Of a DNA stretch of 64,000 nt, positions 1 through 46,205 are shown piece after piece; the first letter of the stretch is position 1, and each line of letters begins with the position of its first letter. This DNA is from an uncultured Candidatus Peribacteria bacterium (GTDB lineage: Bacteria > Patescibacteriota > Gracilibacteria > Peribacterales > Peribacteraceae): NCBI GenBank assembly GCA_964554435.1, contig CAZKOO010000003.1, forward strand, positions 5,252 through 69,251, read 5' to 3'. A program made the position numbers and the translations under genes. The notes under the pieces were generated by a model. It had not been told where the DNA came from, made no database searches, and worked only from the letters and a program-made list of their open reading frames with translations.

Positions 1-1301
1 CGGGGCTTTCGTTCTACGGATCAAAAGACTACCTCGTGAAAGACATGTACATCCATCACTTCGGAGCAGATGGCATCTATATTGGAGGCGGAGGAACTCC
101 TGCAAATTACCCTAGTCCTGAACCCATCAATCCCACAGATCGTCCTGCACGGCTCGCCGACCGATCTGTGCGTGTTCACAATGTACGCATGGCAAACAAC
201 GGAAGACAAGCGATGACCGTTGTACAAGCTCGCGACGTATGGCTCAGTAATAGCCAATTTCTCGACACAGGACGAGTGACAAAATTTGGACAAATAAGTA
301 TGAATTACAGACCTGTTGAGCCCTCTGCAGGCATCGACATCGAGCCCAATTATTTTGATCTTGCGAGAGATAGTACAAACAATCGAGAGACAGGATCGTA
401 CGATGACAAAAAAATTGACGTAGTCACCGGAGATATCCTCATTGAAAATTCAAGGTTTGCAAGAAATGTTGGAGCTCAACTCACTGCGGTGCTCGGTCGT
501 CCCATCAACCCCTACATCAAAGCAGATGGCACCTGTTGTGACAGTGTCTGTAGTGCAAAATGTGCACCTCCATGGAATAGTACAAATAATAGTTTTGGAA
601 TCTGGCCACATCCACGCGTTGAAAATGTGACCATTCGCTTCTCTGATTTTCAGAGTGCAAGCGACTCTTCGCAGTACGTCATTGCTCTTGCTGCTCGCAA
701 TGGAGTTCTTGAACACTCTCTTGTGAATGCAATGGAAACGCCAAATGGAAAAATATATCTCACATTTCATGGCGGCTCGAGTACTGGACCCAATAAAAAT
801 GATGAACTCATCACAACAACCATCCGAAAAAACACCATCTTCTCAAATGACGAAGGAATTCTCTATGCGCACTGGGCAAGACATCCAATTGAAATCTCTC
901 AAAATCTCATTCGTGGAACTGCAACAATGCTCACTCCAGAAATTATTCCGAGTGCAGTAGGTGAGAAAAAGATCCTTCGCAATTTCTGGTCCATTCCTGT
1001 TCCTTCTACAGCGTGGTTCTCACCGCTCTCTGCAATCACTCCTTCCTCTCCAGGAAAAAGCATCATGCGTCTCTTTGCGAACGTCTTTGAAAACAATACC
1101 TATTGCTTAAGTGGCATGAGTGATGAATCTTTTGGATGCACGTCCTATACAGATGCAGATCGAGAGAAAGGATATGGCAATATGGATTTCGCCTCTCCTC
1201 GCCTTTCTCAGAATGAAGAGTACAGAAGTGGATGTCTGCTTCGTCCATTTGCAAACTTCACAAGTTGTACAACTACTCCATACATCTTCAGCTATCCATA
1301 A
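1..1301 (+). CDS. right-handed parallel beta-helix repeat protein (5' end outside window)
   Basis: The ORF track starts at GTG 36, but the frame stays open back to base 3, so the gene probably starts upstream. HHFGADGIYIGGGG, NVRMANNGRQAMTV, IDIEPN and ILIENSRFARNVGAQL read as successive beta-helix coils. Assigned by motif recall only. Confidence 0.6.
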   Translation, partial: GLSFYGSKDYLVKDMYIHHFGADGIYIGGGGTPANYPSPEPINPTDRPARLADRSVRVHNVRMANNGRQAMTVVQARDVWLSNSQFLDTGRVTKFGQISMNYRPVEPSAGIDIEPNYFDLARDSTNNRETGSYDDKKIDVVTGDILIENSRFARNVGAQLTAVLGRPINPYIKADGTCCDSVCSAKCAPPWNSTNNSFGIWPHPRVENVTIRFSDFQSASDSSQYVIALAARNGVLEHSLVNAMETPNGKIYLTFHGGSSTGPNKNDELITTTIRKNTIFSNDEGILYAHWARHPIEISQNLIRGTATMLTPEIIPSAVGEKKILRNFWSIPVPSTAWFSPLSAITPSSPGKSIMRLFANVFENNTYCLSGMSDESFGCTSYTDADREKGYGNMDFASPRLSQNEEYRSGCLLRPFANFTSCTTTPYIFSYP

Positions 1302-1563
1302 AATATAGCTACAATATTATAAATGTACATACATTTGTCGCCTTGATGAGCTTTGTATTCACTGTTCATGTGCGAAGCGTCAAGCGATGTGCATCTGTTT
1401 GAGGAGCGAAGCGACGAGTCTGCACATCGCAGCGGAGCACATGAAATACAGTGATCAAAGCGAATCACGAGCGACGATTTTTTCCTTGTCCCCCGAAGCC
1501 CTGAGCAAAGCGAGGGCGTAGGGGGATTTATCACCTTCTTTTGTAGCGACAAAAGAAAGGAAA
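1302..1563 (+). repeat. structured intergenic repeat element, copy A (MITE-like)
   Basis: Starts with AATATAGCTAC 1 nt after the stop codon. About 200 nt are nearly identical to 18865..19071 in the same orientation. The ends carry inverted TTTGTCGC...GCGACAAA. There is an internal 10-bp stem GCGATGTGCA/TGCACATCGC. Copy A has an extra ~47-nt GC hairpin (TCCCCC..GGGGGA) that copy B lacks. Confidence 0.75.
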
Positions 1564-1689: not shown

Positions 1690-1718
1690 TTGAATGTTGT
1701 GCAAAATATTGATACAAT
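1690..1718 (+). promoter_or_regulatory. sigma70-like promoter (TTGAAT-17-TACAAT)
   Basis: TTGAAT at 1690-1695, a 17-nt spacer, TACAAT at 1713-1718, 43 nt upstream of ATG 1762. The same block is duplicated at 5006..5034. Confidence 0.45.
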
Positions 1719-1761: not shown

Positions 1762-4700
1762 ATGCCTCTCATGAATTCCATCCACGCTCACCGAAAGACC
1801 ATCATCGGTGCTTCGCTTGCACTCATTCTTATGGGTGTCTATTTTGCACTCCAGAAACCAGCACAAGCAGTCGTGCCATTTGAGAAGGGGGGCATCCCCA
1901 TCCCTTTCCTGGAGACATCAAAAGATGGGCAATCTGGGTTAAAAGGAGCAGTGACATTCTACGACAAACGCAATAACATCGATGTCTATGAAGTCACATT
2001 CACTGCAGGAGAAACATCGGAAGCCTTGAGTGAGAATCTCATTTACTTAGTGCACATTCCAAATGACAGCGCCATCACAGAAAAGGATTTTGATAGCGTC
2101 ATGCGCCAAACAAACGAAGGAAGAGCAGTGAATTACTATGGATATCAATACACCGATGCGCTTGCAACTGTTGAGCGTCAGAACATCAACAATGCAGATT
2201 TCAAACTTCGTTTCCCAGGACAATTCTTTGCATCCGCAAAGGCACGAGCAGAAGATGCAACGCACGGCAATGGCATTGTCAATTTTGAACGCGATCGTGG
2301 CATTACCTTCCGAAATACAAATGGATCGCTTCCAAAAAGTACACTCCAAAAAAATGCTCTCTATGTTCTGATTAGCAATGAAGCAGGAGCAAATTCAACA
2401 AAGATCTATCCAAAAGGCGCACCAGCACTCTGTGGCGATGGTGTCCGCGAAGGAACAGAAGTCTGTGATGATGGAGATCAGAACAACACAAATGCCTGTA
2501 AGAATGACTGTACAGCAAACACAGGAAATGACCCCGTATGTGGAAACGGTGTAAAAGAGGGCACAGAACAATGTGATGATGGAAACACCAACAACACTGA
2601 CTCCTGTACCAATAGTTGTACAGTCAACACTCCACCACCAGTCTGTGGAAACGGAACACGCGAAGGAACAGAACAATGTGATGATGGAAACACAAACAAC
2701 ACCGATGCGTGTAAGAATGATTGTACCTCAAATACAGGAAATGACCCTGTATGTGGAAATGGTGTAAAAGAGGGTACAGAACAATGTGATGACGGAGACC
2801 AGAATAACAATAACCTCTGTCGTACCGATTGTACTGTTGGTCTTCCTGTACCCTTTACTACAGAGTCAGCCAAAACTACTGTGGTAATTGATCCTGAGAT
2901 CACTACAAATCCCAATACAGAAAACGAAGATATAATATTCACCTCATTGTATTTACCAGAGGAAGGAATCATTCAATTTCCTCAGTCAAATCAAGTAACG
3001 GAAGCAACGAACCGATTCAGCCTAAAGGCAAGAGAAGGCATTTCCCCAAAGGTAACACAACTTCGTTTTAGAGTAACATCCCCTTCTCAGCCAGCGGAAA
3101 ATTTCACACTCTGGAAAGACACAAATAATGATGGAGAAGTTGATCAAAAAATAAATATTGTCCCATTTTTCGACACAACACTCGATAATCCAATTATCAT
3201 AAAAAATTTAAGTTTTCCTTTCTTATCTCACTTACCACTTATTTTCCCTATCAATGATCAAATAACACTCTCCTCGACTCCAGTTATTTTTGAAGTACAT
3301 GTATCTCCTGCTAAAAATACATATACTCAGGAGGCTATGTTTTATTTAGTTAGTCCACTTTTCTTTTCAGGAACCTTTTATCAAGACTCAATAGCGTACC
3401 CTCTGGGTATTGGTCATAGTGTGCTAGCAAAAGAATGTGGAGAAAATGAATGTACAGTAAAAGAAAATATGAGCCACTCCGGAAAATCTATACATTTTGG
3501 AAATGTTGGTATTACTCCTCCTTGGAATACTGATATAAACATCAGGAACTTATCGATATATAAGAATAATGGTCCTGAGAAAGGAGTCATCTTTCCTCAG
3601 CTACCTAAACAACCAATGGAAACATTTACCAGGTTCACTCTTGAAGCAAGAGAGGGCATCTCCCCAACAGTGAAGCAGCTTGAATTTACCAATGGTATTG
3701 GTGATAATACTTATGGTCGTTTACTTCAATACCATTTTGTAGATAAAACGACAATCCCCACCACTCTATTTTCTCAGGGTTCCATCTCTATGGCACACGA
3801 TTACGAGCTCTGGAAAGACACAGATGATGATGGAATTGTTGATCAAAAAATAAACAGTAAACCGATCGGTGAAACAACAAATGTACTTGTTCTTTCAATT
3901 GATGATCAAATCACATTGAGAAAAAGGCCAACTATCTTTGAACTACATGGGCGTCCTCAGGCAAAAGGATTACTACGCATCACACTCAAAGGAGATAGTG
4001 CAATTGATGCATTTAGTATAAAAGCAGAAGGTTGTGGGGAGAATCCATGTACAATCACTGAACCACATTATGGAGGACAACCAATTTTCTTTTTCTCTCC
4101 CGATGGTTCTAAGCCACTCAATCTTCCTCTCTTAATAGAACAAATAGAGAAAACATCCACAGGAACGATAAAAGCAAACGAAAGAACATCTATCTTTGCC
4201 TTCAAGGCAAGATCAAGCCTGTACAATGGCAATAATATTGCCTTGAAGGCACTAAAATTTAAAGTAGTCAGTGGTGTTCCGAGCGATGCGCGCTACGAAT
4301 TGTGGTACGACAATGATCATAATGGAGAAGTAGAAACACAGTCCCCCATTCTTGGAACAATTGACCCTGTATCAAAAATTGTTACCTTTGAAGCAGAAAA
4401 TGGAGTCATTCTAGGATCTTTGATGGATGATCACGTACAACAACTCTACGAAGTTCATGCCATTCACGATCCTGTAGCATCAGCAAACAACACCGAGTTT
4501 AAGATGACCTTTGCAATTACAGATCCTCTCTATATCACTGCCGTAGAAATTTTTAATGACGATCTAGCCAGCGCACAACCAATAAATGGGCTCCGAACGA
4601 ACGGTATCGATTATAAGGGAAGACATAATATTTTTGTCACAGAGAAACAATCCACAACATTTACTCTGAATACCATTACCGACATTAGTCCTCTCTGTGG

Positions 4701-4827
4701 TAATTCCTATAAAGAAGAAGGTGAAGAGTGTGATAATGGAATGCTAAATGGTGTAATTTGTACAGCGCAAGCAGGACAATCGTGTACTTACTGTTCCTCT
4801 ACTTGCACTTCAAAAACAGGACAATAA
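1762..4827 (+). CDS. large secreted/anchored cysteine-rich-repeat surface protein (adhesin-like), paralog 1
   Basis: 1021 aa. Has an N-terminal hydrophobic anchor (IIGASLALILMGVYFAL). Four tandem ~35-aa repeats CG[DN]G..EGTE.CDDG..NN..C..DC match the Myxococcus-type cysteine-rich repeat. Three large modules each carry LW.D.[ND].DG.VD. A fifth Cys-rich repeat sits at the C-terminus. Confidence 0.8.
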   Translation: MPLMNSIHAHRKTIIGASLALILMGVYFALQKPAQAVVPFEKGGIPIPFLETSKDGQSGLKGAVTFYDKRNNIDVYEVTFTAGETSEALSENLIYLVHIPNDSAITEKDFDSVMRQTNEGRAVNYYGYQYTDALATVERQNINNADFKLRFPGQFFASAKARAEDATHGNGIVNFERDRGITFRNTNGSLPKSTLQKNALYVLISNEAGANSTKIYPKGAPALCGDGVREGTEVCDDGDQNNTNACKNDCTANTGNDPVCGNGVKEGTEQCDDGNTNNTDSCTNSCTVNTPPPVCGNGTREGTEQCDDGNTNNTDACKNDCTSNTGNDPVCGNGVKEGTEQCDDGDQNNNNLCRTDCTVGLPVPFTTESAKTTVVIDPEITTNPNTENEDIIFTSLYLPEEGIIQFPQSNQVTEATNRFSLKAREGISPKVTQLRFRVTSPSQPAENFTLWKDTNNDGEVDQKINIVPFFDTTLDNPIIIKNLSFPFLSHLPLIFPINDQITLSSTPVIFEVHVSPAKNTYTQEAMFYLVSPLFFSGTFYQDSIAYPLGIGHSVLAKECGENECTVKENMSHSGKSIHFGNVGITPPWNTDINIRNLSIYKNNGPEKGVIFPQLPKQPMETFTRFTLEAREGISPTVKQLEFTNGIGDNTYGRLLQYHFVDKTTIPTTLFSQGSISMAHDYELWKDTDDDGIVDQKINSKPIGETTNVLVLSIDDQITLRKRPTIFELHGRPQAKGLLRITLKGDSAIDAFSIKAEGCGENPCTITEPHYGGQPIFFFSPDGSKPLNLPLLIEQIEKTSTGTIKANERTSIFAFKARSSLYNGNNIALKALKFKVVSGVPSDARYELWYDNDHNGEVETQSPILGTIDPVSKIVTFEAENGVILGSLMDDHVQQLYEVHAIHDPVASANNTEFKMTFAITDPLYITAVEIFNDDLASAQPINGLRTNGIDYKGRHNIFVTEKQSTTFTLNTITDISPLCGNSYKEEGEECDNGMLNGVICTAQAGQSCTYCSSTCTSKTGQ

Positions 4828-4867
4828 AATAGACGAAGGAGATTTTCCAAAAAAAAACGGATATCTC

Positions 4868-4930
4868 CTTCGTCCATTTGCAAGCTTCACAAGTTGTACA
4901 ACTACTCCATACATCTTCAGCTATCCATAA
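4868..4930 (+). pseudogene. orphan duplicate of the last 20 codons + stop of the beta-helix gene
   Basis: 63 nt equal 1239..1301 with 1 mismatch and read LRPFASFTSCTTTPYIFSYP*. No ORF leads into the fragment. Confidence 0.7.
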
Positions 4931-5005
4931 AAAGAAAAATAATTCATTTCAACAAAAGATACAAGGATTGCAAGTCATTTCTTTGTCGCTTCTCTATCAT
5001 TGATA

Positions 5006-5034
5006 TTGAATGTTGTGCAAAATATTGATACAAT
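5006..5034 (+). promoter_or_regulatory. duplicated sigma70-like promoter (TTGAAT-17-TACAAT)
   Basis: 4970..5043 duplicates 1654..1727 with ~1 mismatch. The -35 is at 5006-5011 and the -10 at 5029-5034, 24 nt upstream of ATG 5059. Confidence 0.45.
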
Positions 5035-5058
5035 AAGAAGATTCTTTTTCTCTTTTCT

Positions 5059-5559
5059 ATGAAGATTTCTTCCATCATTCTAAGCGCCATCCTCCTTGCG
5101 AGTGTGCCTAGTGCTGTTTCTGCCTACCTTTCACCAGAGCAAGTCTTTGGTGGACAAGGAACTGTTGCAACCCCTCCTCCTACCCCACGCGAAGGAGAAG
5201 ATCGTGTCACCACACAGCAAGAAGAGAGTGCAAGACGACGAGAGGAAGAACAGCAAGCTCTTCGTCCAAATTATTTGGAGCCACAAAATACGTATATCCC
5301 AACCACAACATCGAGTGCTTCAAAGAATCCGTTTAGCGATCAGGCACAGTACGAACGACGAATGGAAAAATTGAACGAGAAGAAATCACAACCCACCATC
5401 ATCATTGGAGGAAATGGCTCAGTCACCGATGCGCGTGGGAATGTACTGCATAGTGGCGCCCCTCTTGTCTCTCAAACAGGACCCGAAAGCATGATGGCTC
5501 TCGCTCTTCTTGGTATTGCAGCCCTGAGCACACTTGCTTACGCCTTTGCGAAAAACTAA
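5059..5559 (+). CDS. small secreted Pro/Glu/Gln-rich protein with C-terminal membrane anchor
   Basis: Signal peptide MKISSIILSAILLASVPSAVSA, a low-complexity middle, and a C-terminal GPES + hydrophobic helix + KN tail. Confidence 0.6.
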   Translation: MKISSIILSAILLASVPSAVSAYLSPEQVFGGQGTVATPPPTPREGEDRVTTQQEESARRREEEQQALRPNYLEPQNTYIPTTTSSASKNPFSDQAQYERRMEKLNEKKSQPTIIIGGNGSVTDARGNVLHSGAPLVSQTGPESMMALALLGIAALSTLAYAFAKN

Positions 5560-5638
5560 CAACAAAAACGCGGCTAGAAAAGCCGCTCTTCCATAGCCAA
5601 TAGCCAATTGCCACAAGCTACTAGCCAAATCACACAAA

Positions 5639-5655
5639 CTACCTACTACCAACTA
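5639..5655 (+). repeat. dispersed 17-nt intergenic motif (variant CTACCTACTACCAACTA)
   Basis: One mismatch to CTACCTACTAACAACTA. Sense orientation, 43 nt upstream of ATG 5699, inside a G-poor TAG/TAA-rich spacer. Confidence 0.7.
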
Positions 5656-5698
5656 ATAACTAGCTACTAACCACTCTCTATCCCTTCCCATCCACCCC

Positions 5699-8600
5699 AT
5701 GTCTCTCGTTACTTCCATCCACGCTCACCGAAAGACCATCATCGGTGCTTCGCTTGCACTCATTCTTATGGGTGTCTATTTTGCACTCCAGAAACCAGCA
5801 CAAGCAGTCGTGCCATTTGAGAAGGGGGGCATCCCCATCCCTTTCCTGGAGACATCAAAAGATGGGCAATCTGGGTTAAAAGGAGCAGTGACATTCTACG
5901 ACAAACGCAATAACATCGATGTCTATGAAGTCACATTCACTGCAGGAGAAACATCGGAAGCCTTGAGTGAGAATCTCATTTACTTAGTGCACATTCCAAA
6001 TGACAGCGCCATCACAGAAAAGGATTTTGATAGCGTCATGCGCCAAACAAACGAAGGAAGAGCAGTGAATTACTATGGATATCAATACACCGATGCGCTT
6101 GCAACTGTTGAGCGTCAGAACATCAACAATGCAGATTTCAAACTTCGTTTCCCAGGACAATTCTTTGCATCCGCAAAGGCACGAGCAGAAGATGCAACGC
6201 ACGGCAATGGCATTGTCAATTTTGAACGCGATCGTGGCATTACCTTCCGAAATACAAATGGATCGCTTCCAAAAAGTACACTCCAAAAAAATGCTCTCTA
6301 TGTTCTGATTAGCAATGAAGCAGGAGCAAATTCAACAAAGATCTATCCAAAAGGCGCACCAGCACTCTGTGGCGATGGTGTCCGCGAAGGAACAGAAGTC
6401 TGTGATGATGGAGATCAGAACAACACAAATGCCTGTAAGAATGACTGTACAGCAAACACAGGAAATGACCCCGTATGTGGAAACGGTGTAAAAGAGGGCA
6501 CAGAACAATGTGATGATGGAAACACCAACAACACTGACTCCTGTACCAATAGTTGTACAGTCAACACTCCACCACCAGTCTGTGGAAACGGAACACGCGA
6601 AGGAACAGAACAATGTGATGATGGAAACACAAACAACACCGATGCGTGTAAGAATGATTGTACCTCAAATACAGGAAATGACCCTGTATGTGGAAATGGT
6701 GTAAAAGAGGGTACAGAACAATGTGATGACGGAGACCAGAATAACAATAACCTCTGTCGTACCGATTGTACCAATGGACTTCCAGTGCCATTCACCACAG
6801 AGCCAACCACAACACCTCCAACAACAACTCCACCAACTGTCACACCCCCGACAACAACTCCTCCGACAACTGTTGCGCCTACAACTGTAAATCCGCCAAG
6901 CGAAGATCTTGTCTTTACTGCATTAGAGGTACCAAGTGTAAAAGGAGTAGTATTTCCACAAGTCTCAAATCAACCAATCGAAACTTTTTCTCGATTCTCA
7001 TTACAAGGAAATGGAACTCTAAAAAAACTTGAATTTACAGCAGTGCAAGGATCAATTCCAATGGCATATGACTATCGTCTTTGGAAGGATACAAATGGAG
7101 ATGGAACAGTTGATCAAGAAATGAGTATTCGTGCAGTAAGCGAAGAAAATGCAACGCTCGTCTTTAATCTTACAAATGAAATTATTGCGACCAGCACGCC
7201 AATGATTTTTGAGCTACGAGCATTACCTCAAGCAACTGGATTGCTACAAATATTTATTGGAGGATATCCAAATAGCATCGTAGGAGATACTTGTTCACAT
7301 TCACCATGTACTATTTCTATTGGCAGAGAACATCAGCCAACCGTCTTCGCCTTCTCCGCTCATGGATCTGCACCAAGTCCGTATGCGCTCACTGTTGAAG
7401 GAGTTGATGCTCCAGCAGCAGGAATTCTTAAGGCAAATGAAAAGAAAAGTATTATGGCATTCCGTGTTACTCCTCATATTTATGATGACTCCAGTGCTTT
7501 TGGGCTCACATCTCTCAAGGTAAAAGTAGTAACAGGAGTAGCAAGCAATGCTCAATATGAACTTTGGTCGGATTCAAATGGAGATGGAGTTATTAATGGA
7601 ATTCCACGAGATGAGAGCTATGACAGTGTCTGTCGAAAAGGCGTTGTGAACGCTACAACAAGAGTGGTTACCTTTGAAAACCCCATCGATCCTACTGATC
7701 CTACAGCCACATCTAAAACCATGCTTCCTTGTACTTTCCTTGCCGTTGATGGTCAGTCAAAATACTTTGAAATTCACGCCATTCATGACCCAGTCCCTGC
7801 CACAGAATTCAAGATGACATTTGCTATTGATCAAGCGAACTATATTGAAGCTATTAAAGATGATTTAAATGATGGAACAAAGACAGTAGTCATTACCAAT
7901 ATTCGTACGAACGGTATCTGTAATGGGGAATGTAGTATTGATGTAACTGAAAAACCAACTACTCTCTTCACAGTCGATACTACCAACCCCGTTCCGCTCT
8001 GTGGAAATAAATATAAAGAAGGAAGTGAGCAATGCGATAATGGTGGGGAAGAAGGATGTTACACAAACTGTCAAATTGATGCTGGATATGAATGTACTGG
8101 CACACATCCATCTATTTGTACATTCATTGATCATGCACTCTGTGGCAATGGAAATATTGATTACAACGACGATGAAGAATGTGATGATAAAAATAAAACA
8201 AGTGGTGATGGATGTAGTAGCGCTTGTACTATTGAAGAACACTACAGTTGTGATGGGCAAGAAATTCTCGGCGATCGAAGTTCTTGCTTCCGCTGTGGAG
8301 ATGCACATTTTGAAGAAAGAGTAGAAGATTGTGATGATGGAAATACCGTAGGTGGAGATGGTTGTTCAGCAGATTGTGGTAGCACAGAAGACGGATACAT
8401 CTGTGAAACAGATACAACTGGAAAAAGTATTTGTACAACAGAGAACGGAGGAAATGGTGGCAATACCGCCGCCTGTGGAAACGGTACGAAAGAAGGCTCT
8501 GAAGCGTGTGATGCTGGCGCACAAAATGGCGTTGTTTGTACTGCACAGGCAGGACAAACGTGTACCTACTGTTCCGCTACTTGTACATCAGTCACAGTCC

Positions 8601-8968
8601 AAGGAAGTGGAGGAGGAGCTAGTCTGTGCGGAAATGGAGTCATCAATGCAGGTGAAACGTGTGACCAAGGAGGTGGAAACGTAACGAATGGAGATGGCTG
8701 TAGTGCCACTTGTACCACTGAAGCAAACTTCCGTTGTACAGGAACACCAACTACGTGTATTTCCTATCTCAATTTCGTCAAAAACCTCGCCGATACCAAC
8801 AAAGATGGCACAGTGGATGAAAATGAATCTTTTAGCTTTGTATTAACGATTGGCATCCTCTTCTCACAAGACAATCCAGTCATCGACATCAAGTACGACA
8901 TCAATGGAGATGGTGCTGGCACCATGGCAGACATCTCTCTCATTGCCCCTCTTATGAATTCCCTCTAA
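5699..8968 (+). CDS. large cysteine-rich-repeat surface protein with C-terminal dockerin-like module, paralog 2
   Basis: 1089 aa. Residues ~6-357 are identical to paralog 1. Then a Pro/Thr linker (TTPPTTTPPTVTPPTTTPP), two LW.D.NGDG modules and many further CGNG..E.CD.G repeats. The C-terminus carries DTNKDGTVDENE and DINGDGAGTMADISLI, a dockerin/EF-hand-like pair. Confidence 0.8.
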   Translation: MSLVTSIHAHRKTIIGASLALILMGVYFALQKPAQAVVPFEKGGIPIPFLETSKDGQSGLKGAVTFYDKRNNIDVYEVTFTAGETSEALSENLIYLVHIPNDSAITEKDFDSVMRQTNEGRAVNYYGYQYTDALATVERQNINNADFKLRFPGQFFASAKARAEDATHGNGIVNFERDRGITFRNTNGSLPKSTLQKNALYVLISNEAGANSTKIYPKGAPALCGDGVREGTEVCDDGDQNNTNACKNDCTANTGNDPVCGNGVKEGTEQCDDGNTNNTDSCTNSCTVNTPPPVCGNGTREGTEQCDDGNTNNTDACKNDCTSNTGNDPVCGNGVKEGTEQCDDGDQNNNNLCRTDCTNGLPVPFTTEPTTTPPTTTPPTVTPPTTTPPTTVAPTTVNPPSEDLVFTALEVPSVKGVVFPQVSNQPIETFSRFSLQGNGTLKKLEFTAVQGSIPMAYDYRLWKDTNGDGTVDQEMSIRAVSEENATLVFNLTNEIIATSTPMIFELRALPQATGLLQIFIGGYPNSIVGDTCSHSPCTISIGREHQPTVFAFSAHGSAPSPYALTVEGVDAPAAGILKANEKKSIMAFRVTPHIYDDSSAFGLTSLKVKVVTGVASNAQYELWSDSNGDGVINGIPRDESYDSVCRKGVVNATTRVVTFENPIDPTDPTATSKTMLPCTFLAVDGQSKYFEIHAIHDPVPATEFKMTFAIDQANYIEAIKDDLNDGTKTVVITNIRTNGICNGECSIDVTEKPTTLFTVDTTNPVPLCGNKYKEGSEQCDNGGEEGCYTNCQIDAGYECTGTHPSICTFIDHALCGNGNIDYNDDEECDDKNKTSGDGCSSACTIEEHYSCDGQEILGDRSSCFRCGDAHFEERVEDCDDGNTVGGDGCSADCGSTEDGYICETDTTGKSICTTENGGNGGNTAACGNGTKEGSEACDAGAQNGVVCTAQAGQTCTYCSATCTSVTVQGSGGGASLCGNGVINAGETCDQGGGNVTNGDGCSATCTTEANFRCTGTPTTCISYLNFVKNLADTNKDGTVDENESFSFVLTIGILFSQDNPVIDIKYDINGDGAGTMADISLIAPLMNSL

Positions 8969-8974
8969 TTCTTC

Positions 8975-10015
8975 ATGCAAAAAAAGGTACTTCTCTCTAT
9001 CGGCGGACTCGTCGTTGCACTCGGCATGATTGCAATGCAAAAAGGATATGTAGGCACACTAAAAGGCGCTGTCACGAGCACAGGACCGCTCTCGCACAGC
9101 GAAGTGCGATCCATCATTGATACAGACTCTTCATCGGTTGGAACAATCACTATTACAGAAATGCGTAGTGCGCTCGTCAAGACTATTAAAACAGCCATTC
9201 TACAGTCTGCAAATGCGCCAATTGATGCGCCAATTGATGCGCCAACCATCCTTCTCTACGACCTTGATCGAAATGGAAGAGTCGAAAAAAATGATATTGG
9301 ACTCATGATTGGACACATTCTGCAAATTCGTCAGTGTGGCAATGGTCAAGTGTCAGGAAATGAACAATGTGATGATCGTAATACCTTCAATGGAGATGGA
9401 TGCTCCAATCAATGCACAACAGAAGCAGGATACAGCTGTGATATATTGAATGGAATGAGCGTCTGTCGTTCGTGTGGAAATGGACGCATCGAAGGCCCAG
9501 AGCAATGTGATGACGGCACAAATAATGCACTAACGTGTGTCGTTCCTGCAGGGCAAGCGTCCTGCTCGTTCTGTTCTAGTGCCACATGCACCCTTGCAAC
9601 ACAACAAAACCCATGTGGAAACGGCTCTCTCGACGCAGGAGAACAATGTGACCAGGGAAATGGTAACCGCACCAATGGAGATGGATGTTCAGCGACCTGT
9701 CAGCAAGAGCAAGGGTACCGTTGTGGAAACGCTGTGCCAAGTGTTTGTACAAGCTATACAGACATTATAAAGAAGCTTATTGGTATTGAAGACAATATGG
9801 CAGAGGAACAAAAAAATAGTATTGCCATCGATTTCGAACTTAATTTCTATTACGCAGTGTTCAGCAATGAAAATTATCCAACTCCACTCTTCGATACCAA
9901 TGAAGATGGAATCAAAAACCAATCCGATTTCGACATCAATAATGATGGTATTGTCAATGAGAGTGATGTCACCACCATGCTCGATCTCCTCTCAACCGTT
10001 GTGCCACTACCCTAA
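8975..10015 (+). CDS. cysteine-rich-repeat protein with N- and C-terminal dockerin-like modules
   Basis: Signal anchor LLSIGGLVVALGMIAM. Dockerin-like segment YDLDRNGRVEKNDIGLMIGHIL. Four repeats of the CGNG..E.CDD..NGDGCS type. C-terminal DTNEDGIKNQSDFDINNDGIVNESDVTTMLDLL. Confidence 0.75.
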   Translation: MQKKVLLSIGGLVVALGMIAMQKGYVGTLKGAVTSTGPLSHSEVRSIIDTDSSSVGTITITEMRSALVKTIKTAILQSANAPIDAPIDAPTILLYDLDRNGRVEKNDIGLMIGHILQIRQCGNGQVSGNEQCDDRNTFNGDGCSNQCTTEAGYSCDILNGMSVCRSCGNGRIEGPEQCDDGTNNALTCVVPAGQASCSFCSSATCTLATQQNPCGNGSLDAGEQCDQGNGNRTNGDGCSATCQQEQGYRCGNAVPSVCTSYTDIIKKLIGIEDNMAEEQKNSIAIDFELNFYYAVFSNENYPTPLFDTNEDGIKNQSDFDINNDGIVNESDVTTMLDLLSTVVPLP

Positions 10016-10030
10016 GTCCATTCTTTGTCC

Positions 10031-11014
10031 ATGCGCTATCTCAGCATTATTACCGGCAGCATCATTCTCCTAATTGGTCTCTCCATTCTTTTTATTTCTC
10101 AAAAGGAGCAAATCTCTTCCTCTTTACGAGGAAGTATTGTTTCCAAAGATGTACGAATTGAGCGCATTCGATCCATGGTGGACATCAACCCTGCAGACTT
10201 CACACTCACAAAACAAGAGATGAAAAACGCAATGGTGACAGCAATTATAAAAGTAATTATTGGCACCGATCTCACGTATGATTTCAGTGGAAATGGCATA
10301 CTAAATAAAGAGGATCTTCGTTTTTTCTTAGAAGTGATACAGTACCTTCTTTCCTGTGGAAATGGTGGAACGAGCAACATAGAAGAGTGCGATGACGGAA
10401 ACACGTTCTCAGGAGATGGATGTAGCGCCATCTGCACTCAAGAAGATGGATTTATTTGTAGTTATGAACCAGATTCGCCAAGTATCTGCGAAAACAATCC
10501 TCTACCATATTGTGGAAACGGAAAAACTAATGTCACAGAAGAGTGCGATGATGGAAACACACATAATGGAGATGGTTGTTCGGCACAGTGTAACATTGAA
10601 CAAGGATATACATGCGAGATTACAGCACTGGAAATGAGCGCATGTTACGTATGTGGTAATGGAAAAATAGAAATGTATGAAGAGTGTGATGACGGAAACA
10701 CCGTCAGTGGAGATGGCTGTACTGGCACAGATCCAAATCTTAGACAAGCAGCCTGTAAACTTGATTTTTGTGGAAATGGAAGGCTCGAGGTTGAAAAACG
10801 AGAGCAATGTGATGATGGTAGTAGGAATGCACTATCATGTGTTGCTACTTCAGATCAGGAATTTTGTTCATTCTGCCGTAGTGTTTGGTGCACTGTGGTA
10901 CGACAACCAAATCCATGTGGAAATGGCATTCTCGATCCAGGAGAAGAATGTGATGAGGGGCGCGAAAGCTCCTCTAGATGCTCAAATACTTGTAAAAGTC
11001 TTATTCTCATGTAA
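10031..11014 (+). CDS. cysteine-rich-repeat protein with N-terminal dockerin-like module
   Basis: I prefer ATG 10031 over the track's TTG 10025. TM helix IITGSIILLIGLSILFI. VDINPADFTLTKQEMKNAM and YDFSGNGILNKEDLRFFLEVIQYLL form a loop-helix pair. Five to six repeats of the CGNG..E.CDDGN..SGDGCS type follow. Confidence 0.75.
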   Translation: MRYLSIITGSIILLIGLSILFISQKEQISSSLRGSIVSKDVRIERIRSMVDINPADFTLTKQEMKNAMVTAIIKVIIGTDLTYDFSGNGILNKEDLRFFLEVIQYLLSCGNGGTSNIEECDDGNTFSGDGCSAICTQEDGFICSYEPDSPSICENNPLPYCGNGKTNVTEECDDGNTHNGDGCSAQCNIEQGYTCEITALEMSACYVCGNGKIEMYEECDDGNTVSGDGCTGTDPNLRQAACKLDFCGNGRLEVEKREQCDDGSRNALSCVATSDQEFCSFCRSVWCTVVRQPNPCGNGILDPGEECDEGRESSSRCSNTCKSLILM

Positions 11015-11034
11015 ATACCCCCTCCCCCCTCTCT

Positions 11035-11829
11035 ATGCGTCATGACTCCCTCAAGATCATCGGTATACTCGTCATTGTTGCGTGCATCGTATTCCTTGTA
11101 AAAAAAGGATCATTCTCATCGATACGAGGAGAACTCCTCGCGCCAGACACAACAGTGTACGAACGAGTACGCACCATGGTGGACATCAACCCTGCAGACT
11201 TCACACTCACAAAACGAGAGATGAAAACGGCAATGGTGACAGCAATTACAAAAGTAATTATTGGCACCGATCTCACCTATGATTTCAGTGGAAATGGCGC
11301 CATCAGTAAGAATGATTTGCGTCTATTCTTAAGCGCTATTCAATATCTTCTCACCTGTGGAAATGGACAAATCACAAGCCCAGAAACCTGTGACGATGGC
11401 AACACACGAAATGAAGATGGATGTAGCGCCATCTGCACGACAGAAACTGGCTTTACCTGTACTGGTACACCAAGTGTGTGCCAAGGCATTCCATCCACAC
11501 AATGTGGAAATGGAACAGTCGAAGCAGGCGAACAGTGTGATGATGGAAATACAGTGAGTGGAGATGGATGTAGTGGAACTGAGGCAAACATTCCAAATGG
11601 TGCGTGCCAACATGAATTCTGTGGAGATGGATACAAAGATGCCGATGGACACCCAGGTGACCCCTCAACCATTGAGCAATGTGACGATGGAGGGGTGTGC
11701 CAAGGAGGACCAAATGATGGAAACCCCTGCACTGGTTTTCTGGATGACCCTGCCTGTGGAGCGCAAGGAACATGTATGAAAATCAACTCTCCTATTTGTT
11801 CTGCATCATGCACTCTTCTTAGTCTATAA
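11035..11829 (+). CDS. cysteine-rich-repeat protein with N-terminal dockerin-like module
   Basis: The N-terminal ~100 aa are close to the 10031 gene (VDINPADFTLTKREMKTAMVTAITKVIIGTDLTYDFSGNGAISKNDLRLFL). Cys-rich repeats follow. Confidence 0.75.
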   Translation: MRHDSLKIIGILVIVACIVFLVKKGSFSSIRGELLAPDTTVYERVRTMVDINPADFTLTKREMKTAMVTAITKVIIGTDLTYDFSGNGAISKNDLRLFLSAIQYLLTCGNGQITSPETCDDGNTRNEDGCSAICTTETGFTCTGTPSVCQGIPSTQCGNGTVEAGEQCDDGNTVSGDGCSGTEANIPNGACQHEFCGDGYKDADGHPGDPSTIEQCDDGGVCQGGPNDGNPCTGFLDDPACGAQGTCMKINSPICSASCTLLSL

Positions 11830-11843
11830 TCCCCCATCTTCAT

Positions 11844-14519
11844 ATGAAAAACATGCGTTTCACAGCACTATCAACACCACTTTTCATTGTAACGAGTATT
11901 ATAGTACTTGCAATACTGATGGTAACAACAACACTCCTACCATCAAACAAAGCGCTATTAATACAAAATGTGGAACGCTTTGATATTCCAAGCAACGCAC
12001 GCATTGTCACAGTCACAAACCTGAATGCAGATGGACCAGGTAGCTTCACCGATGCCATGCTGCAAACAGGGCCACGTGTTATTGTGTTTGAAGTCGGAGG
12101 AGTCATCGACTTGCGCTCGAAGTCAGCACAAAGACTTACTCAAATGATTTCACTGAAGAATGGAAATGGGAATGTGGTTGTTGCAGGAGAAACAGCGCCA
12201 TCTCCAGGAATTCATCTGATTGGTGCACCACTTGAAATTCTCACATCAAATGTTGTTATTCGACACTTGAGCATCTACACAGGCACTCAATTCCCATATT
12301 ATTTAAGTTCCGATGCTCTGAAGATCGACTCATTTGGAGGAAATAACATTCGTAATATTCTCATTGAAAACAATACCTTTCTCTGGGCAATTGATGAAAC
12401 CGGAGAGCTGTGGACTGATCCTCTCAATTATGACGTTGGACGTATTAAAGATATCATTTTCCGCAAAAATATCTTCGGAGAAGCACTTCTTGCTGCTAAT
12501 CAAGGCACAGGAAATCCTGAAGGAGCACTTCATCCAAAAGGCCCACACTCCAACGGATTTTTACTCTCTCACGGAGCTCAGCAGATTACATTTGAACGCA
12601 ATATTTTTGCCAGCAACTATCGAAGAAATCCATGGATCACTGGAAATACAACGTCGTTTTTCTTAAATAACCTCATCTTCAATCCCGATCGTCATGCGTT
12701 CATCTTCTCGGGAGGAAATGTGTATGGCGACCCTCCAAAAGATGTACTAAGTGCTCAAGTAACAGCGGTAGGAAACGTTGCTTTTGCTGGTCAGGACACA
12801 CAAGATTGGCTGATGGGCGATACTGATGGACAACCAAAAATGTTCTTTGGCGCACCAGATTCAGTGGGAAGAAATACAAAACTCTATCTGGATGATAATG
12901 CATTCTTTGCAAGAAATGGATCACTCATTGGAAAGGACTGGGGTGTAGTGTATGACTCGAATGAAAATTCAGAATTTGCACTACAGGGCTCAGAAACGCC
13001 AATGACATGGTATCCGCTCTCAAGCTACTCCGTTCTCCCATCTTCACAGGTAAAAACAACTGTTTTGAACGAAGCTGGAGCACGACCATTTGATAGCAAT
13101 CGTCCGCATACAAGTCGCCTCATCAATGCCATGAAAGATGGTACAAGTCGCATCGTAAACGTTGAAGCAGACGTGGGAGGCTATCCTGTTCTTACAAAAA
13201 CAACGCGCGCATTTACTATTGCAACGCTTGACCCCATTCCCGCTGGCTATTTAGCATTATCAACAATTGGAACCAGTCAAGGACTGACATCTTCCATTTT
13301 TAACACATCTTCAAGTCAATCGAGTCTTCCGACGACAGCAACAGTTACTCTCCCGACACCTGTTGGTCAATGGCTCATGAACAGCACCACTCTTCTTCCA
13401 GACGTCTCCAATCACGGAAATACTCTCACGCTTATGGGAAGTGTACCAAAGGTCACTGCAGATACACAGTACGCAGCAAGTTTTACTGGAAACATCAATA
13501 ACTATCTCTTTGCAAACCCATCGAGCACCATCAACATGAATGGAAACAGCTTTACCATCAGTGCGTGGTTTAAGCCAACGGATGTCACGTCCGGCATTCG
13601 TGGTATCGTCTCAAAATCAAAAATGGGGCGCTTTGGCGATGCTCCCATTCAAATTTATCATGAGAATGATGTGGTCCGTATGAGTATTGGTGACTCCACT
13701 ATTCAAACGAGTGGCGACCCATATTTTCTTGGAAAAACACGCGCCGATAACATCTTCTCTCCAGCACATATTGAAGCAGGTCGATGGAACCATGTTCTTG
13801 CATGGTACGACGCAACAGAAGATGTGATGGGTATTTCAGTGAATGGCGAAACTCCTACAGTAAAACCAACTCCCTATACAAGGGGTTACGATTTTTTCAC
13901 TGATACCACACCATTCAATATTGGAAAAATGTATAGTCAAGCACCCTTCAATGGTCTCCTCTCGCACATCGAAATGTGGAGAACAATTCTCACGCCTGAA
14001 CAACGAAAGAAACTCTTCCAAGAGAACGTCCACTGCACCGCAGGAACGCTCGACTGTACGCTTTCTTCGATGATCATCAGCCCTGACGAGGAAGGATTTT
14101 ACGCATATGGTTTTGAAAAGACGACCACCCCTGCGTTCCGAGGAGTCACGAAAGATCGCGATGTTCCTTCTCTTCTTGTAACGCCAGTAAAAAAAGGAAT
14201 CTGGCTACTCAAAGACGCTGAAGCAGGAACCTATGACGTCTTCACGACATGGACCCAAACCCCCACTCGCACACAAAACGTTCCTCTCCGTATTGTGGTA
14301 CCTGGAGAGCAACTTGCACCAATTGCTACAACGATCAATCAAGCAAATGCTCCGCGTATTGACTCTTCATTTGGCAATGGAAAATGGCAAAAGATTGGCA
14401 GTGTAACACTGCTGAACCGAGGATCGATTCGCGTTGAACTCTCACCTGGAACATCGAGTACGAACGCAAGAACAACACTCGATTCTGTGCTATTTCAGAA
14501 GAAAACAATCCTACAATAG
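11844..14519 (+). CDS. secreted pectate-lyase-fold beta-helix protein fused to a LamG/concanavalin-like domain
   Basis: 891 aa with a signal anchor. VTVTNLNADGPGSFTDAMLQTGPRVIVFEVGGVIDL resembles the pectate-lyase N-terminal motif. GNSFTISAWFKPTD...GRWNHVLAWYD is typical of the LamG (Laminin_G_3-like) fold. Confidence 0.6.
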   Translation: MKNMRFTALSTPLFIVTSIIVLAILMVTTTLLPSNKALLIQNVERFDIPSNARIVTVTNLNADGPGSFTDAMLQTGPRVIVFEVGGVIDLRSKSAQRLTQMISLKNGNGNVVVAGETAPSPGIHLIGAPLEILTSNVVIRHLSIYTGTQFPYYLSSDALKIDSFGGNNIRNILIENNTFLWAIDETGELWTDPLNYDVGRIKDIIFRKNIFGEALLAANQGTGNPEGALHPKGPHSNGFLLSHGAQQITFERNIFASNYRRNPWITGNTTSFFLNNLIFNPDRHAFIFSGGNVYGDPPKDVLSAQVTAVGNVAFAGQDTQDWLMGDTDGQPKMFFGAPDSVGRNTKLYLDDNAFFARNGSLIGKDWGVVYDSNENSEFALQGSETPMTWYPLSSYSVLPSSQVKTTVLNEAGARPFDSNRPHTSRLINAMKDGTSRIVNVEADVGGYPVLTKTTRAFTIATLDPIPAGYLALSTIGTSQGLTSSIFNTSSSQSSLPTTATVTLPTPVGQWLMNSTTLLPDVSNHGNTLTLMGSVPKVTADTQYAASFTGNINNYLFANPSSTINMNGNSFTISAWFKPTDVTSGIRGIVSKSKMGRFGDAPIQIYHENDVVRMSIGDSTIQTSGDPYFLGKTRADNIFSPAHIEAGRWNHVLAWYDATEDVMGISVNGETPTVKPTPYTRGYDFFTDTTPFNIGKMYSQAPFNGLLSHIEMWRTILTPEQRKKLFQENVHCTAGTLDCTLSSMIISPDEEGFYAYGFEKTTTPAFRGVTKDRDVPSLLVTPVKKGIWLLKDAEAGTYDVFTTWTQTPTRTQNVPLRIVVPGEQLAPIATTINQANAPRIDSSFGNGKWQKIGSVTLLNRGSIRVELSPGTSSTNARTTLDSVLFQKKTILQ

Positions 14520-18864: not shown

Positions 18865-19071
18865 AATATAGCTACGTACATTTGTCGCCTTGATGAGCTT
18901 TGTATTCACTGTTCATGTGCGTAGCGTAAAGCGATGTGCATCTGTTTGAGGAGCGAAGCGACGAGTCTGCACATCGCAGCGGAGCACATGAAATACAGTG
19001 ATCAAAGCGAATCACGAGCGACGATTTTTTCTTTCGTTTCCTTTCTTTTGTAGCGACAAAAGAAAGGAAAA
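18865..19071 (+). repeat. structured intergenic repeat element, copy B
   Basis: Starts with AATATAGCTAC 7 nt after the TAG of the amidase-SpoIID gene. Near-identical to copy A apart from two indels. Ends with the CTTTTGTAGCGACAAAAG hairpin. Confidence 0.75.
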
Positions 19072-25297: not shown

Positions 25298-25846
25298 ATG
25301 CATCTGCCACTCTCTCTCCAAAAAAAACTAAGCATCCTCTTCCCAGAGCAAAAAGAACGCGATGCATTCATCATCGAAACAATCGAAAAAGCCATAGAAC
25401 ACAACACGTCATCAAACGCTGAAACGAACATCGTAGTAGGGGGAACTCTTCATCTTTTTTCTGATGGAGGCTCGCGCGGAAACCCCGGTCGTGCTGCCAT
25501 TGGCTGTGTGCTGATCGATCCGCACACAGGAACCATTCTCAAAGAACATGGCGTAACCATTGGCATTGAAACAAACAACATCGCAGAGTACAAAGCACTC
25601 ATTGAGGGGTTACGCATAGCGCAGAACTATCACCCTAATGCGCTCATCTGCCACCTCGACTCTGAGCTTGTCGTGAAGCAACTCAAAGGAGAATACAAAG
25701 TAAAGATGCCGTCCTTTCAACCACTCATTGCCGAAATTGTGACACTCTGCAAGCACTTTCCTTCAGTGTCATTTGTGGCAATCCCCCGCGCTCGCAACAG
25801 CCACGCCGATCGCCTCGTGAACGAAGCATTGGATGGGAGGAGGTAG
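25298..25846 (+). CDS. RNase H (type 1, RVT_3-like) with N-terminal extension
   Basis: LFSDGGSRGNPGRAAIGCVL, ETNNIAEYKALIEGL, LDSELVVKQLKGEYKVK, PRARNSHADRLVNEAL. Confidence 0.85.
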   Translation: MHLPLSLQKKLSILFPEQKERDAFIIETIEKAIEHNTSSNAETNIVVGGTLHLFSDGGSRGNPGRAAIGCVLIDPHTGTILKEHGVTIGIETNNIAEYKALIEGLRIAQNYHPNALICHLDSELVVKQLKGEYKVKMPSFQPLIAEIVTLCKHFPSVSFVAIPRARNSHADRLVNEALDGRR

Positions 25847-25966: not shown

Positions 25967-26869
25967 ATGTTAAAAAAAGATGAGTATTTAAAGGCTTTTA
26001 ATCTAGAGGGTTACAGAAAAATTTCAAATATGGACGATCCTTATGTTGGAGTTTCTCTTATTATTGATCATGACAAAAGGCTTATTCAAAAGCTTAAATT
26101 ACGAGATGAGAAATGGATTGCTTTAATCAATGTGTATCTAGAAAAGAATTGGACAAAAACCCAAGATAATATGAAATCTATCCATGGAAGAGTTGTGTTA
26201 ACAATTGATAGTAATGATAATCAATATTTAATGATAGATAAAAGAAAATTTGGGGCAAACATTCCAATCGATATATATTCAAAAGATGAATATTTCTTTG
26301 ATATAAACACAAATAAATTTTATAAATGTTCAAGTGAAATCACATTCAAAAACATCGTAGACGAACTCTTTAACCTCCATCTAAAGACAACTAAGCCTAT
26401 TTCTGGCTTTATTCTAAGGTTAAAAATAATGCTATTTAATTTTTTAGAACAATCTACATTATTCCTAGCCAAATTCATTGCTTTTATATGCTACATACTT
26501 TTTGGAGAAAAAGTTCCATATGATTTTTTCTCTGAATACATGCAAAAAAAAGATATAACAGAACCAACTCCAATCAAGAAAAGTAAAAAAATAAGTATTT
26601 TCGGTTATGAAGCTTCTGTGCATTTGATATCGTTTTTTTGCCTATGCCACTTGATCATATTTGTTTCTGCTCAATTTTATCAATGGAATAATCCAATAAT
26701 CATATCTATTTTTAATAACAACTTTTTAACTCTAGCATATTCAATATTGGTTTTATATATACTCGAAGAATACATGCACCCATCCCTAAAAGGGGTATTA
26801 AAATGGCTTATTTCAATTGCAAGAAATCTACATGAGAAATTGGAAGGAAAAGAAATAAAAATTTCCTAA
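25967..26869 (+). CDS. hypothetical membrane protein, strongly AT-rich gene
   Basis: 300 aa with Lys/Asn/Ile-rich codon usage, visibly different from its neighbours. Several hydrophobic helices in the C-terminal half (FLAKFIAFICYILF, LISFFCLCHLIIFV, LTLAYSILVLYIL). Confidence 0.55.
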   Translation: MLKKDEYLKAFNLEGYRKISNMDDPYVGVSLIIDHDKRLIQKLKLRDEKWIALINVYLEKNWTKTQDNMKSIHGRVVLTIDSNDNQYLMIDKRKFGANIPIDIYSKDEYFFDINTNKFYKCSSEITFKNIVDELFNLHLKTTKPISGFILRLKIMLFNFLEQSTLFLAKFIAFICYILFGEKVPYDFFSEYMQKKDITEPTPIKKSKKISIFGYEASVHLISFFCLCHLIIFVSAQFYQWNNPIIISIFNNNFLTLAYSILVLYILEEYMHPSLKGVLKWLISIARNLHEKLEGKEIKIS

Positions 26870-45723: not shown

Positions 45724-45724
45724 T

Positions 45725-46162: not shown

Positions 46163-46205
46163 TACATATATACTACCTCATTACACCCTTCCCTGTCAAT
46201 ATCTC

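Follow-up and report, generated by a model that had tools for sequence, protein, structure and literature searches.

Probably exported cysteine-repeat proteins with EF-hand and dockerin-like modules in an operon-like cluster of a Candidatus Peribacteria genome

Introduction

Candidate Phyla Radiation (CPR) bacteria are believed to live attached to other cells, and the molecules by which they make contact are almost unknown. The present analysis concerns a cluster of open reading frames (ORFs), here called g0 to g6 and gx, in a 64 kb stretch of contig CAZKOO010000003.1 from an uncultured Candidatus Peribacteria bacterium; this whole stretch is referred to as the window. We propose that the cluster encodes exported modular surface proteins which combine Cys-rich repeats with Ca2+ modules of the EF-hand type.

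The closest described system is that of Anantharaman et al. (2016, PeerJ; PMC4736985), who described large extracellular proteins of Peribacteria, some of them very Cys-rich and with a 14-gene cluster among them. Those proteins weakly resemble Myxococcus Cys-rich repeats and pappalysin-1 and vary between strains, and a function in attachment was proposed for them (PMC4736985). The cluster of the window resembles the Peribacteria and Candidatus Peribacter riflensis clusters in lineage, gene clustering, high Cys content, Myxococcus/pappalysin similarity and proposed attachment role, and their rapid variation is paralleled here by the duplications g1/g2 and g4/g5. However, the window proteins are smaller (264–1089 amino acids (aa), where the published proteins average about 1650 aa), and the published description comes without domain anatomy, the likeness to the 14-gene cluster being one of shared traits. 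Wang et al. (2023, Cell; PMC10633639) found in the epibiotic Saccharibacterium Southlakia epibionticum an envelope protein that carries a dockerin domain and is essential, and speculated that it serves in host-glycan adhesion or degradation. This is likewise a dockerin-bearing envelope protein of a CPR bacterium with the same glycan speculation, but it belongs to another phylum-level lineage, has another architecture, and is likened to our proteins by its dockerin domain alone.

The kind of system and the hypothesis about it have therefore been published already. New here are the anatomy at the level of modules and the conserved core, by which we add to a published observation and do not present a new kind of system. 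As far as we found, there is no earlier description of the EF-hand/dockerin-like modules, the N-domain, the beta-sandwich family, the LPXTG-like protein or the PL1-LamG neighbour reported below.

The cluster and its Cys-repeat proteins

The CPR origin suggested in an earlier note on this DNA was confirmed as Candidatus Peribacteria (Peregrinibacteria, CPR/Patescibacteria), and the YebC of the window is 63–67% identical to those of Candidatus Peribacteria metagenome-assembled genomes. An ORF check placed g0, g1, gx and g2 to g6 all on the + strand, and the five co-directional Cys-repeat genes reported in that note (g1 to g5, starting at positions 1762, 5699, 8975, 10031 and 11035) were all found there. 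The tight spacing described for the last four of them is also real, with gaps of 6 nucleotides (nt) between g2 and g3, 15 nt between g3 and g4 and 20 nt between g4 and g5, and g6 follows g5 after 14 nt in the same manner. A terminator scan revealed no terminator-like site in these short gaps from g2 to g6, its matches in this part falling within coding sequence. The cluster is operon-like and belongs to the chromosome of a Candidatus Peribacteria bacterium.

Hidden Markov model (HMM) searches showed that the Cys-rich repeats of all five proteins are indeed of the Myxococcus type, since each protein exceeds the curated cut-offs of both TIGR02232 (69–162 bits; cut-off 20.8) and PF13948 (DUF4215; 42–84 bits; cut-off 27). 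Cysteine makes up 2.5% of g1 and 4.8–8.0% of g2 to g5. The Myxococcus Cys-rich acidic repeat (TIGR02232/DUF4215), which is also present in pappalysin-1, was matched at E-values of 1e-19 to 1e-48. In a Foldseek comparison, the g3 model aligned with PAPP-A, in which alone the structure of this repeat has been solved, at a probability of 1.00 and a root-mean-square deviation of 1.2–1.5 Å over 47–51 residues with 43–49% identity, and the PAPP-A sequence match of the g3 repeat had an E-value of 6.5e-5. The repeats of the window are paired with EF-hand modules and lineage-specific domains, whereas those of the Myxococcota are paired with PA14/fibro-slime domains. We know of no function of the Myxococcus-type Cys repeat in any bacterium.

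In both large proteins, g1 and g2, a putative signal peptide leads into a lineage-specific N-domain of about 190 aa, after which come four Cys repeats, then beta-sandwich repeats and further Cys repeats. In g1 (1021 aa; 1762..4827, + strand) the N-domain covers aa ~37–222 and the four Cys repeats lie at nt 2431–2835; they are followed by three beta-sandwich repeats (2926–3495, 3529–4098 and 4117–4671, each with an LW.D.N.DG.V loop) and by one terminal Cys repeat from nt 4696, with no terminal EF-hand module. Its paralogue g2 (1089 aa; 5699..8968, + strand) possesses a Thr/Pro linker, two beta-sandwich repeats (6899–7357 and 7379–7978), a second Cys-repeat block (8000–8758) and a C-terminal dockerin-like two-loop module (8762–8965). 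No significant match was obtained with an N-domain profile against the PDB, and none in a metagenome scan with the N-domain alignment.

The common plan of the three smaller proteins is a hydrophobic N-terminus, a two-segment EF-hand-like module and Cys repeats. The first of them, g3 (346 aa; 8975..10015, + strand), carries its N-terminal EF-hand-pair module at 9113–9334, three Cys repeats at 9335–9748 and, in addition, a C-terminal dockerin-like module at 9752–10012 which is homologous to that of g2. In g4 (327 aa; 10031..11014, + strand) the EF-hand-pair module (10175–10354) is followed by five Cys repeats, and in its paralogue g5 (264 aa; 11035..11829, + strand) the module (11176–11355), 73% identical to that of g4, is followed by two to three.

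A motif L(K/R)G(A/S/E)(V/I/L) was noticed just past the N-terminal hydrophobic segment of g3 to g5 (aa ~28–35) and of homologues at two loci of related assemblies (L084 and L089). The same motif opens the N-domain of g1 and g2 (GLKGAVTF, aa ~59–66), and it may mark a site of processing or recognition.

EF-hand and dockerin-like modules

Paired dockerin-type Ca loops had been claimed for four of the five proteins. Our analysis showed that the modules are present in all four, g2 to g5, but that the pairing is imperfect in g3 to g5, where one loop is degenerate. When all window ORFs of 100 aa or more were searched in six frames with a strict pattern for the Ca loop, D.[NDS].[NDS]G.[ILVAM]..x[DE], five matches were obtained, all of them in g2 to g5 and none elsewhere, and this confinement is not due to chance. 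The C-terminal module of g2 has a length of 68 aa and two canonical loops, arranged as two tandem loop-helix segments of about 22 residues (DTNKDGTVDENE plus helix, and DINGDGAGTMAD plus helix). The modules of g4 and g5 each contain a single canonical loop together with a degenerate one (DINPADFTLTKQE), as does the N-terminus of g3, while the C-terminus of g3 contains two canonical loops and a degenerate third.

In type I dockerins (PF00404), which occur in cellulosomal and non-cellulosomal proteins, two tandem loop-helix segments with 12-residue Ca2+ loops of the form D-x-N/D-x-D/N-G...D/E are similarly located at a protein terminus. This arrangement is complete at the C-terminus of g2 and partial in g3 to g5, whose first loop is degenerate. 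Unlike type I dockerins, however, the modules of the window score below threshold and often have that degenerate first loop, no cohesin was detected, the modules of g3 to g5 are N-terminal and membrane-proximal, and the carrier proteins are non-enzymatic. Against Pfam Dockerin_1 (PF00404), the C-terminus of g2 reached 22.8 bits over two stretches (gathering threshold 22.9); g3 scored 17.7 bits as a whole protein (stretch 95–120, the N-terminal loop) and 14.0 bits with its isolated C-terminal module; g5 scored a sub-threshold 13.6 bits, and g4 had no match. As single sequences, the modules gained 15–20 bits against EF-hand_1 and EF-hand_6 in Pfam, and matched dockerins (E 0.012–0.07) and EF-hand proteins of the PDB weakly.

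Profiles gave a clearer picture. With the C-terminal module of g2 and g3 (five sequences including homologues), dockerins came first among the PDB matches (4fl4_A, E 2.6e-5; CelD, E 5.8e-4; 2y3n_B, E 8e-4), calmodulin being at 0.03 or worse. With the N-terminal module (g3 to g5 plus homologues) the top match was the EF-hand protein CaBP (1jfj, E 4.8e-5), spanning both loops, and dockerins followed at about 1e-3; the N-terminal modules thus fit generic EF-hand proteins no worse than dockerins. The comparison with dockerin and EF-hand profiles, which had been put forward earlier as a check, leans towards dockerins for the C-terminal module and generic EF-hands for the N-terminal one, but the single sequences fall below the Pfam thresholds.

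An AlphaFold2 (AF2) model of g3 displayed a loop-helix structure in these segments and not the disorder that had been named beforehand as a sign against them. In its C-terminal part, helices at 261–269, 277–297 and 329–342 surround the loops, and the block-mean predicted local distance difference test score (pLDDT) is about 82–93 over residues 221–290 and 86–91 over 321–340; the loop region 291–320 is the least confident part (47–69). The N-terminal module was modelled as helix 60–79, loop and helix 105–120 (pLDDT 52–67). Foldseek with the whole g3 model found the PAPP-A Cys repeat and no dockerin. Judged by sequence, these are predicted EF-hand-type Ca2+ modules, of which the C-terminal one is dockerin-like while standing outside the dockerin family in the strict sense.

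Beta-sandwich repeats and the search for a cohesin

The central regions of g1 and g2 contain three and two beta-sandwich repeats, respectively, which the earlier note had overlooked. They are about 150–200 aa long and share a conserved Y.LW.D.N.DG.VD loop (alignment A1), and g1 repeat 3 was modelled by AF2 as an all-beta sandwich (pLDDT 64.5; predicted template-modelling score 0.68). No Pfam family matched the repeat, and Foldseek with the model returned nothing at E ≤ 1e-3, the best template-modelling score (TM) being 0.40. An exhaustive HMMER search, on the other hand, found 153 representative proteins at E ≤ 1e-3, of which 21 also passed E ≤ 1e-10. Word-indexed homology searches had returned only g1 itself for the central region of g1 and no match for the alignment of the N-terminal modules; these nulls indicate the limit of that type of search, because the exhaustive HMMER search later found relatives. 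The central repeat thus represents a real, widespread and unannotated family.

Among the 150 listed family proteins, motif and HMM counts gave 18 with the N-domain, 49 with CGNG-type repeats and 10 with the C-terminal module. A Pfam scan of 57 family members revealed DUF11 in 16, DUF4215 in 16, Dockerin_1 in three, SLH in one and Cohesin in none; these partners are domains of surface proteins.

The earlier note had recognised no cohesin, and this was borne out for the cluster by Pfam, PDB profile and Foldseek searches alike. A cohesin identity of the central repeats of g1 and g2 was considered and is unsupported by any of the three: the best cohesin in the Foldseek list stood at rank 36 (TM 0.27–0.32), a 23-sequence repeat profile found no cohesin in the PDB, and the Pfam scan of the 57 members gave none. 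The top PDB match of the profile, RanBP3 (E 8e-4), was judged spurious. Reading the LW.D.N.DG loop as SdrD-B/CnaB was likewise rejected, SdrD_B being found in two of the 57 members and in none of the window proteins.

Export signals and the small protein gx

Hydropathy analysis revealed one N-terminal hydrophobic segment in each of g1 to g6. A signal anchor had been proposed for all five Cys-repeat proteins; a hydrophobic leader is present in all of them, but by eye and hydropathy those of g1 and g2 resemble cleavable signal peptides (AQA|VV) and not anchors, while g3 to g6 show no obvious cleavage site.

Between g1 and g2 lies gx (166 aa; 5059..5559, + strand), a conserved small secreted protein overlooked by the earlier note. 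It has a signal peptide (VSA|YLSPEQVFGG), a low-complexity middle, a conserved GNVLHSGAPLVSQTGPE motif, and a C-terminal transmembrane segment with a basic tail. This tripartite, LPXTG-like sorting-signal layout is conserved in four homologues, although the motif is LV(S/T)xTG and not LPXTG, and the match to NCBIfam LPXTG_anchor (TIGR01167) reached 15.3 bits (cut-off 15.9). Homologues with 36–49% identity are located immediately upstream of g1/g2-like genes at L085, L089 and L090. A Pfam scan of most of the window ORFs revealed no sortase gene. We consider gx to be probably a wall-anchored component of the cluster by virtue of its LPXTG-like signal.

The flanking genes g6 and g0

The array was said to be flanked by two proteins of the pectate-lyase fold, and this holds for g6 but hardly for g0. 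The product of g6 (891 aa; 11844..14519, + strand) has a hydrophobic N-terminus, a PelZ/PL1-like beta-helix at aa ~12–460 and a LamG/concanavalin-like domain at aa 563–720. It matched NCBIfam PelZ (NF041900) with an E-value of 1.3e-44 over aa 12–460 and a score of 152.8 bits, the equivalog cut-off being 840, and in the PDB it matched a pectate lyase (9buj_A, E 1.7e-7) and pectin lyase B (1qcx_A, E 1.1e-3). The fusion to a LamG domain, also claimed before, was verified (Laminin_G_3, PF13385; 58.8 bits against a threshold of 27.6; E 9e-16), and a C-terminal beta domain matched Golvesin_C weakly. An RRNP motif is visible in g6, which may belong to a PL1 catalytic site. By sequence, the N-terminal half of g6 is homologous to the PelZ/PL1 pectate lyases, far below equivalog level, and g6 differs from them by its LamG and further C-terminal domains. 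Pectin is an unlikely substrate of g6 in the source habitat.

In contrast, g0 (1..1301, + strand), a 5'-truncated ORF, possibly encodes a right-handed beta-helix: it matched Pfam Beta_helix below threshold (E 1.6e-4; 21.7 bits against 25.9) and had no NCBIfam match and no PDB sequence match.

Conservation in relatives

The core of the cluster, namely a gx-like gene, a g1/g2-like gene and a second DUF4215/Cys-repeat gene, recurs in at least four other assemblies (L084, L085/L086, L089 and L090). Co-conservation as a block had been set as a point on which the proposal could fail; the core is conserved in this way, while g6 and g0 are not conserved partners. At L085/L086, L089 and L090 the gene order is a ~375-aa protein, the gx homologue, a g1/g2-like gene and then a second g1/g2-like or a g3–5-like gene, and L085 continues with LamG plus DUF4215 and DUF4215 plus G8/CEMIP-beta-helix proteins. 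At L084, 4 nt separate a g1/g2-like gene, which carries the C-terminal module, from the g3–5-like gene behind it. In the g3–5-like gene of L089 both loops of the N-terminal module are canonical, and we therefore read the degenerate first loop of g4 and g5 as that of a decayed EF-hand.

In homologous Peregrinibacteria clusters Dockerin_1 exceeds the Pfam threshold (38.5, 110.8 and 25.2 bits). The first of these scores belongs to an N-domain protein at L087 (Candidatus Peregrinibacteria) which adjoins P0123 and a gx-like gene; the second to P0133 of the Peribacteraceae, which has the beta-sandwich domain and is labelled 'dockerin type I domain-containing' by NCBI.

For g6, a genome-contig scan gave no match, and a metagenome scan gave one lyase-like gene, 32% identical, on a soil contig without a Cys-repeat array; that contig shows many overlapping ORFs on both strands.

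Two further observations were made at these loci. The membrane-anchored protein of ~375 aa is located two genes upstream of the g1/g2-like gene (L085 8175–9293, L089 492–1631 and L090 5567–6688), and in that of L085 thrombospondin-type-3-like DxDxDG repeats occur in runs. The window shows no counterpart; one may lie upstream, before the window starts, or there may be none. At L084 (1974–3270, a contig of the Joint Genome Institute) the g3–5-like gene is seemingly split by a frameshift, which may be a sequencing error or mark a pseudogene, and in the other frame the reading continues with a Cys repeat, then a Ser-rich linker and finally a beta-sandwich repeat.

A proposed surface layer and its alternatives

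We favour, with moderate confidence, the reading of the cluster as lineage-typical exported modular surface proteins forming a Ca2+- and disulfide-stabilised coat or adhesion layer. Its starting points are the observed domain composition, paralogy, operon-like spacing and recurrence of the core in relatives. That the proteins are secreted or membrane-tethered and modular, as previously suggested, is supported. The products would be exported and form the layer on the cell surface, where disulfides and Ca2+ would make the repeats rigid. In this layer, g1 and g2 may be released or retained through protein contacts, gx would probably be linked to the wall via its LPXTG-like signal, and g3 to g6 would probably be tethered by their N-terminal segments. 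The terminal EF-hand/dockerin-like pairs may make Ca2+-dependent contacts among the cluster's own products, and g6 may bind, and possibly cleave, an acidic polysaccharide. In the pairs g1/g2 and g4/g5, rapid duplication together with gene conversion would diversify the exposed parts. A role in attachment or toward host glycans may be envisaged, which repeats what has been speculated for CPR bacteria before (PMC4736985, PMC10633639).

Several results weigh against the surface-layer reading. None of the modules in g2 to g5 attains the Pfam gathering score of Dockerin_1; no cohesin was found in the cluster or in the 57 family members, and no other partner either; the AF2 models are moderate overall, with a mean pLDDT of about 65 and the N-terminal module at 52–67; and the export signals were judged by hydropathy and eye alone. 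Furthermore, ten other Peribacteria species keep S6-S18-YebC without an adjoining cluster, and the position of the cluster is therefore not conserved.

If the proteins do form such a coat, dockerin-mediated assembly is plausible, yet it is somewhat doubtful that the modules really dock proteins to one another. A possible, tentative alternative is that the EF-hand-like modules are structural Ca2+ clamps which stiffen extracellular stalks, with no docking, the proteins being independent adhesins or variable surface antigens. This would agree with the better fit of the N-terminal modules to generic EF-hand proteins, with the degenerate first loops of g3 to g5 and with the failure to find a cohesin. 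Similar Ca loops also exist inside the beta-sandwich repeats, where their role must be structural, and g3 to g5 are already tethered by a hydrophobic segment beside the module, so docking is not needed for their retention. However, the C-terminal module of g2 and g3 is nearer to dockerins than to calmodulin, it is kept as a discrete terminal unit in relatives (P0128, the 580-aa protein of L085, and P0034), and sister clusters contain true Pfam dockerins.

Rather unlikely, in our view, is docking independent of any cohesin, in which the terminal pairs of g2 and g3 and the membrane-proximal pairs of g3 to g5 would bind a new receptor, the beta-sandwich of g1/g2 or gx, and build an adhesive structure for contact with a partner cell. 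If this were true, the beta-sandwich family, which counts at least 153 representative clusters, would correspond in function to cohesin.

The earlier note had envisaged a multi-protein surface complex for attachment or degradation. The EF-hand/dockerin-like modules on which it built are borne out, but a cellulosome-like degradative complex is not indicated, because the modules are on non-enzymatic Cys-repeat proteins and g6 has none. Such a glycan-degrading complex, with dockerin subunits on a scaffoldin and flanking beta-helix lyases attacking host or partner polysaccharide, is improbable. The dockerin-like modules themselves, the homology of g6 to PL1/PelZ pectate lyases together with its lectin-like LamG domain, the pairing of Cys-repeat proteins with G8/CEMIP beta-helix and LamG domains in relatives, and the essential dockerin-domain protein of an epibiotic Saccharibacterium (PMC10633639) would all suit it. 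Yet no cohesin was found by three methods, g6 is the sole enzyme-like gene and scores 152.8 bits against 840, its best other relative is the 32% identical gene on the soil contig, with no close relative beside such arrays, and g0, whose beta-helix match is sub-threshold, is set apart from g1 by a terminator-like hairpin.

The cluster offers a concrete, conserved parts list for one lineage (family-specific N-domain, PAPP-A-type Cys repeats, widespread unannotated beta-sandwich, dockerin-like EF-hand modules, LPXTG-like protein and lyase-like beta-helix-LamG), and these parts are amenable to tests of Ca2+-dependent assembly and glycan binding.

Duplication of g1 and g2 and putative transcription signals

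The first 1116 nt of g1 and g2 are 98.6% identical (1761–2876 against 5698–6813), starting exactly one base before the ATG, whereas the downstream parts share 38% protein identity and differ in repeat numbers. Upstream of gx, at 4859..5053 (+ strand), we identified a footprint of segmental duplication, composed of a remnant of the 3' end of g0 (4859–4932) and a duplicated promoter region (4970–5053), which are 96% identical to 1230–1303 and 1654–1735. The near-identical 5' parts, the diverged 3' parts and these duplicated remnants together show a segmental duplication, after which the copies diverged or underwent gene conversion at the 5' end. The contrast between the 5' and 3' parts is suggestive of gene conversion of the 5' part.

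That the tandem is an assembly artefact and the true array has four genes is highly unlikely: the length and identity of the repeat would permit it, and in another, independent assembly of this organism from short reads (ENA ERZ3430527) there is a break within g2 exactly at the end of the repeat, but the copies differ at 16 positions and have distinct flanks, the 3' two-thirds are just 38% identical in protein with unlike repeat numbers, the g0-tail and promoter remnants are the mark of a genuine segmental duplication, and relatives (L085 and L090) also have two adjacent g1/g2-like genes.

A promoter-like site, TTGAAT-17-TACAAT with TG (TTGAAT-17-TGnTACAAT), is located upstream of g1 at 1690..1718 (+ strand), and a second copy at 5006–5034, upstream of gx, lies within the duplicated segment 1654–1735/4970–5053. 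Behind g0 there is a long palindromic intergenic element followed by a T-run (1326..1484, + strand), which is terminator-like and has a second copy at 18873–19031. The two 159-nt copies are 98% identical and lie 16–25 nt past the stop codons of + strand genes, g0 and an amidase/SpoIID gene. RNA folding predicts a hairpin of about 130 nt (−67 kcal/mol, z = −5.0). Because of this strong terminator-like hairpin and T-run, g0 is probably a separate transcription unit outside the operon. Rfam had no match for the intergenic repeat or the whole window. The element resembles a REP-like (repetitive extragenic palindromic) or terminator-like repeat.

Other genes of the window

The rest of the window is ordinary chromosome, with genes for S6, S18, MetK, G6PD, SerRS, PurH, AroA, RecJ, UvrB and others. 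In related Peribacteria, a neighbourhood homologous to 23–30 kb of the window, near YebC, has the inverted order, which indicates rearrangement. A sixth DUF4215 protein is encoded outside the array (31865–33577 with 30828–31967, both − strand) and has three Cys repeats followed by a long Ser/Leu-rich helical region. The gene at 16269–18857 (+ strand) encodes a secreted protein of 862 aa in which an N-acetylmuramoyl-L-alanine amidase (Amidase_2) is joined to SpoIID, an unusual fusion of two peptidoglycan-remodelling modules. Also present are a type I restriction-modification system (43156–48707, + strand), composed of HsdR and a fused HsdM-HsdS of 868 aa, and, behind it, a Bro-N domain protein (49146–50009, + strand). 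Lastly, an ORF of 300 aa (25967–26869, + strand), which is Lys/Ile-rich, has C-terminal hydrophobic segments and had no Pfam match, adjoins an RVT_3/RNase H-like gene (25298–25846); it lies in the stretch of lowest GC content in the window (0.39 at 26–28 kb) and could be foreign DNA.

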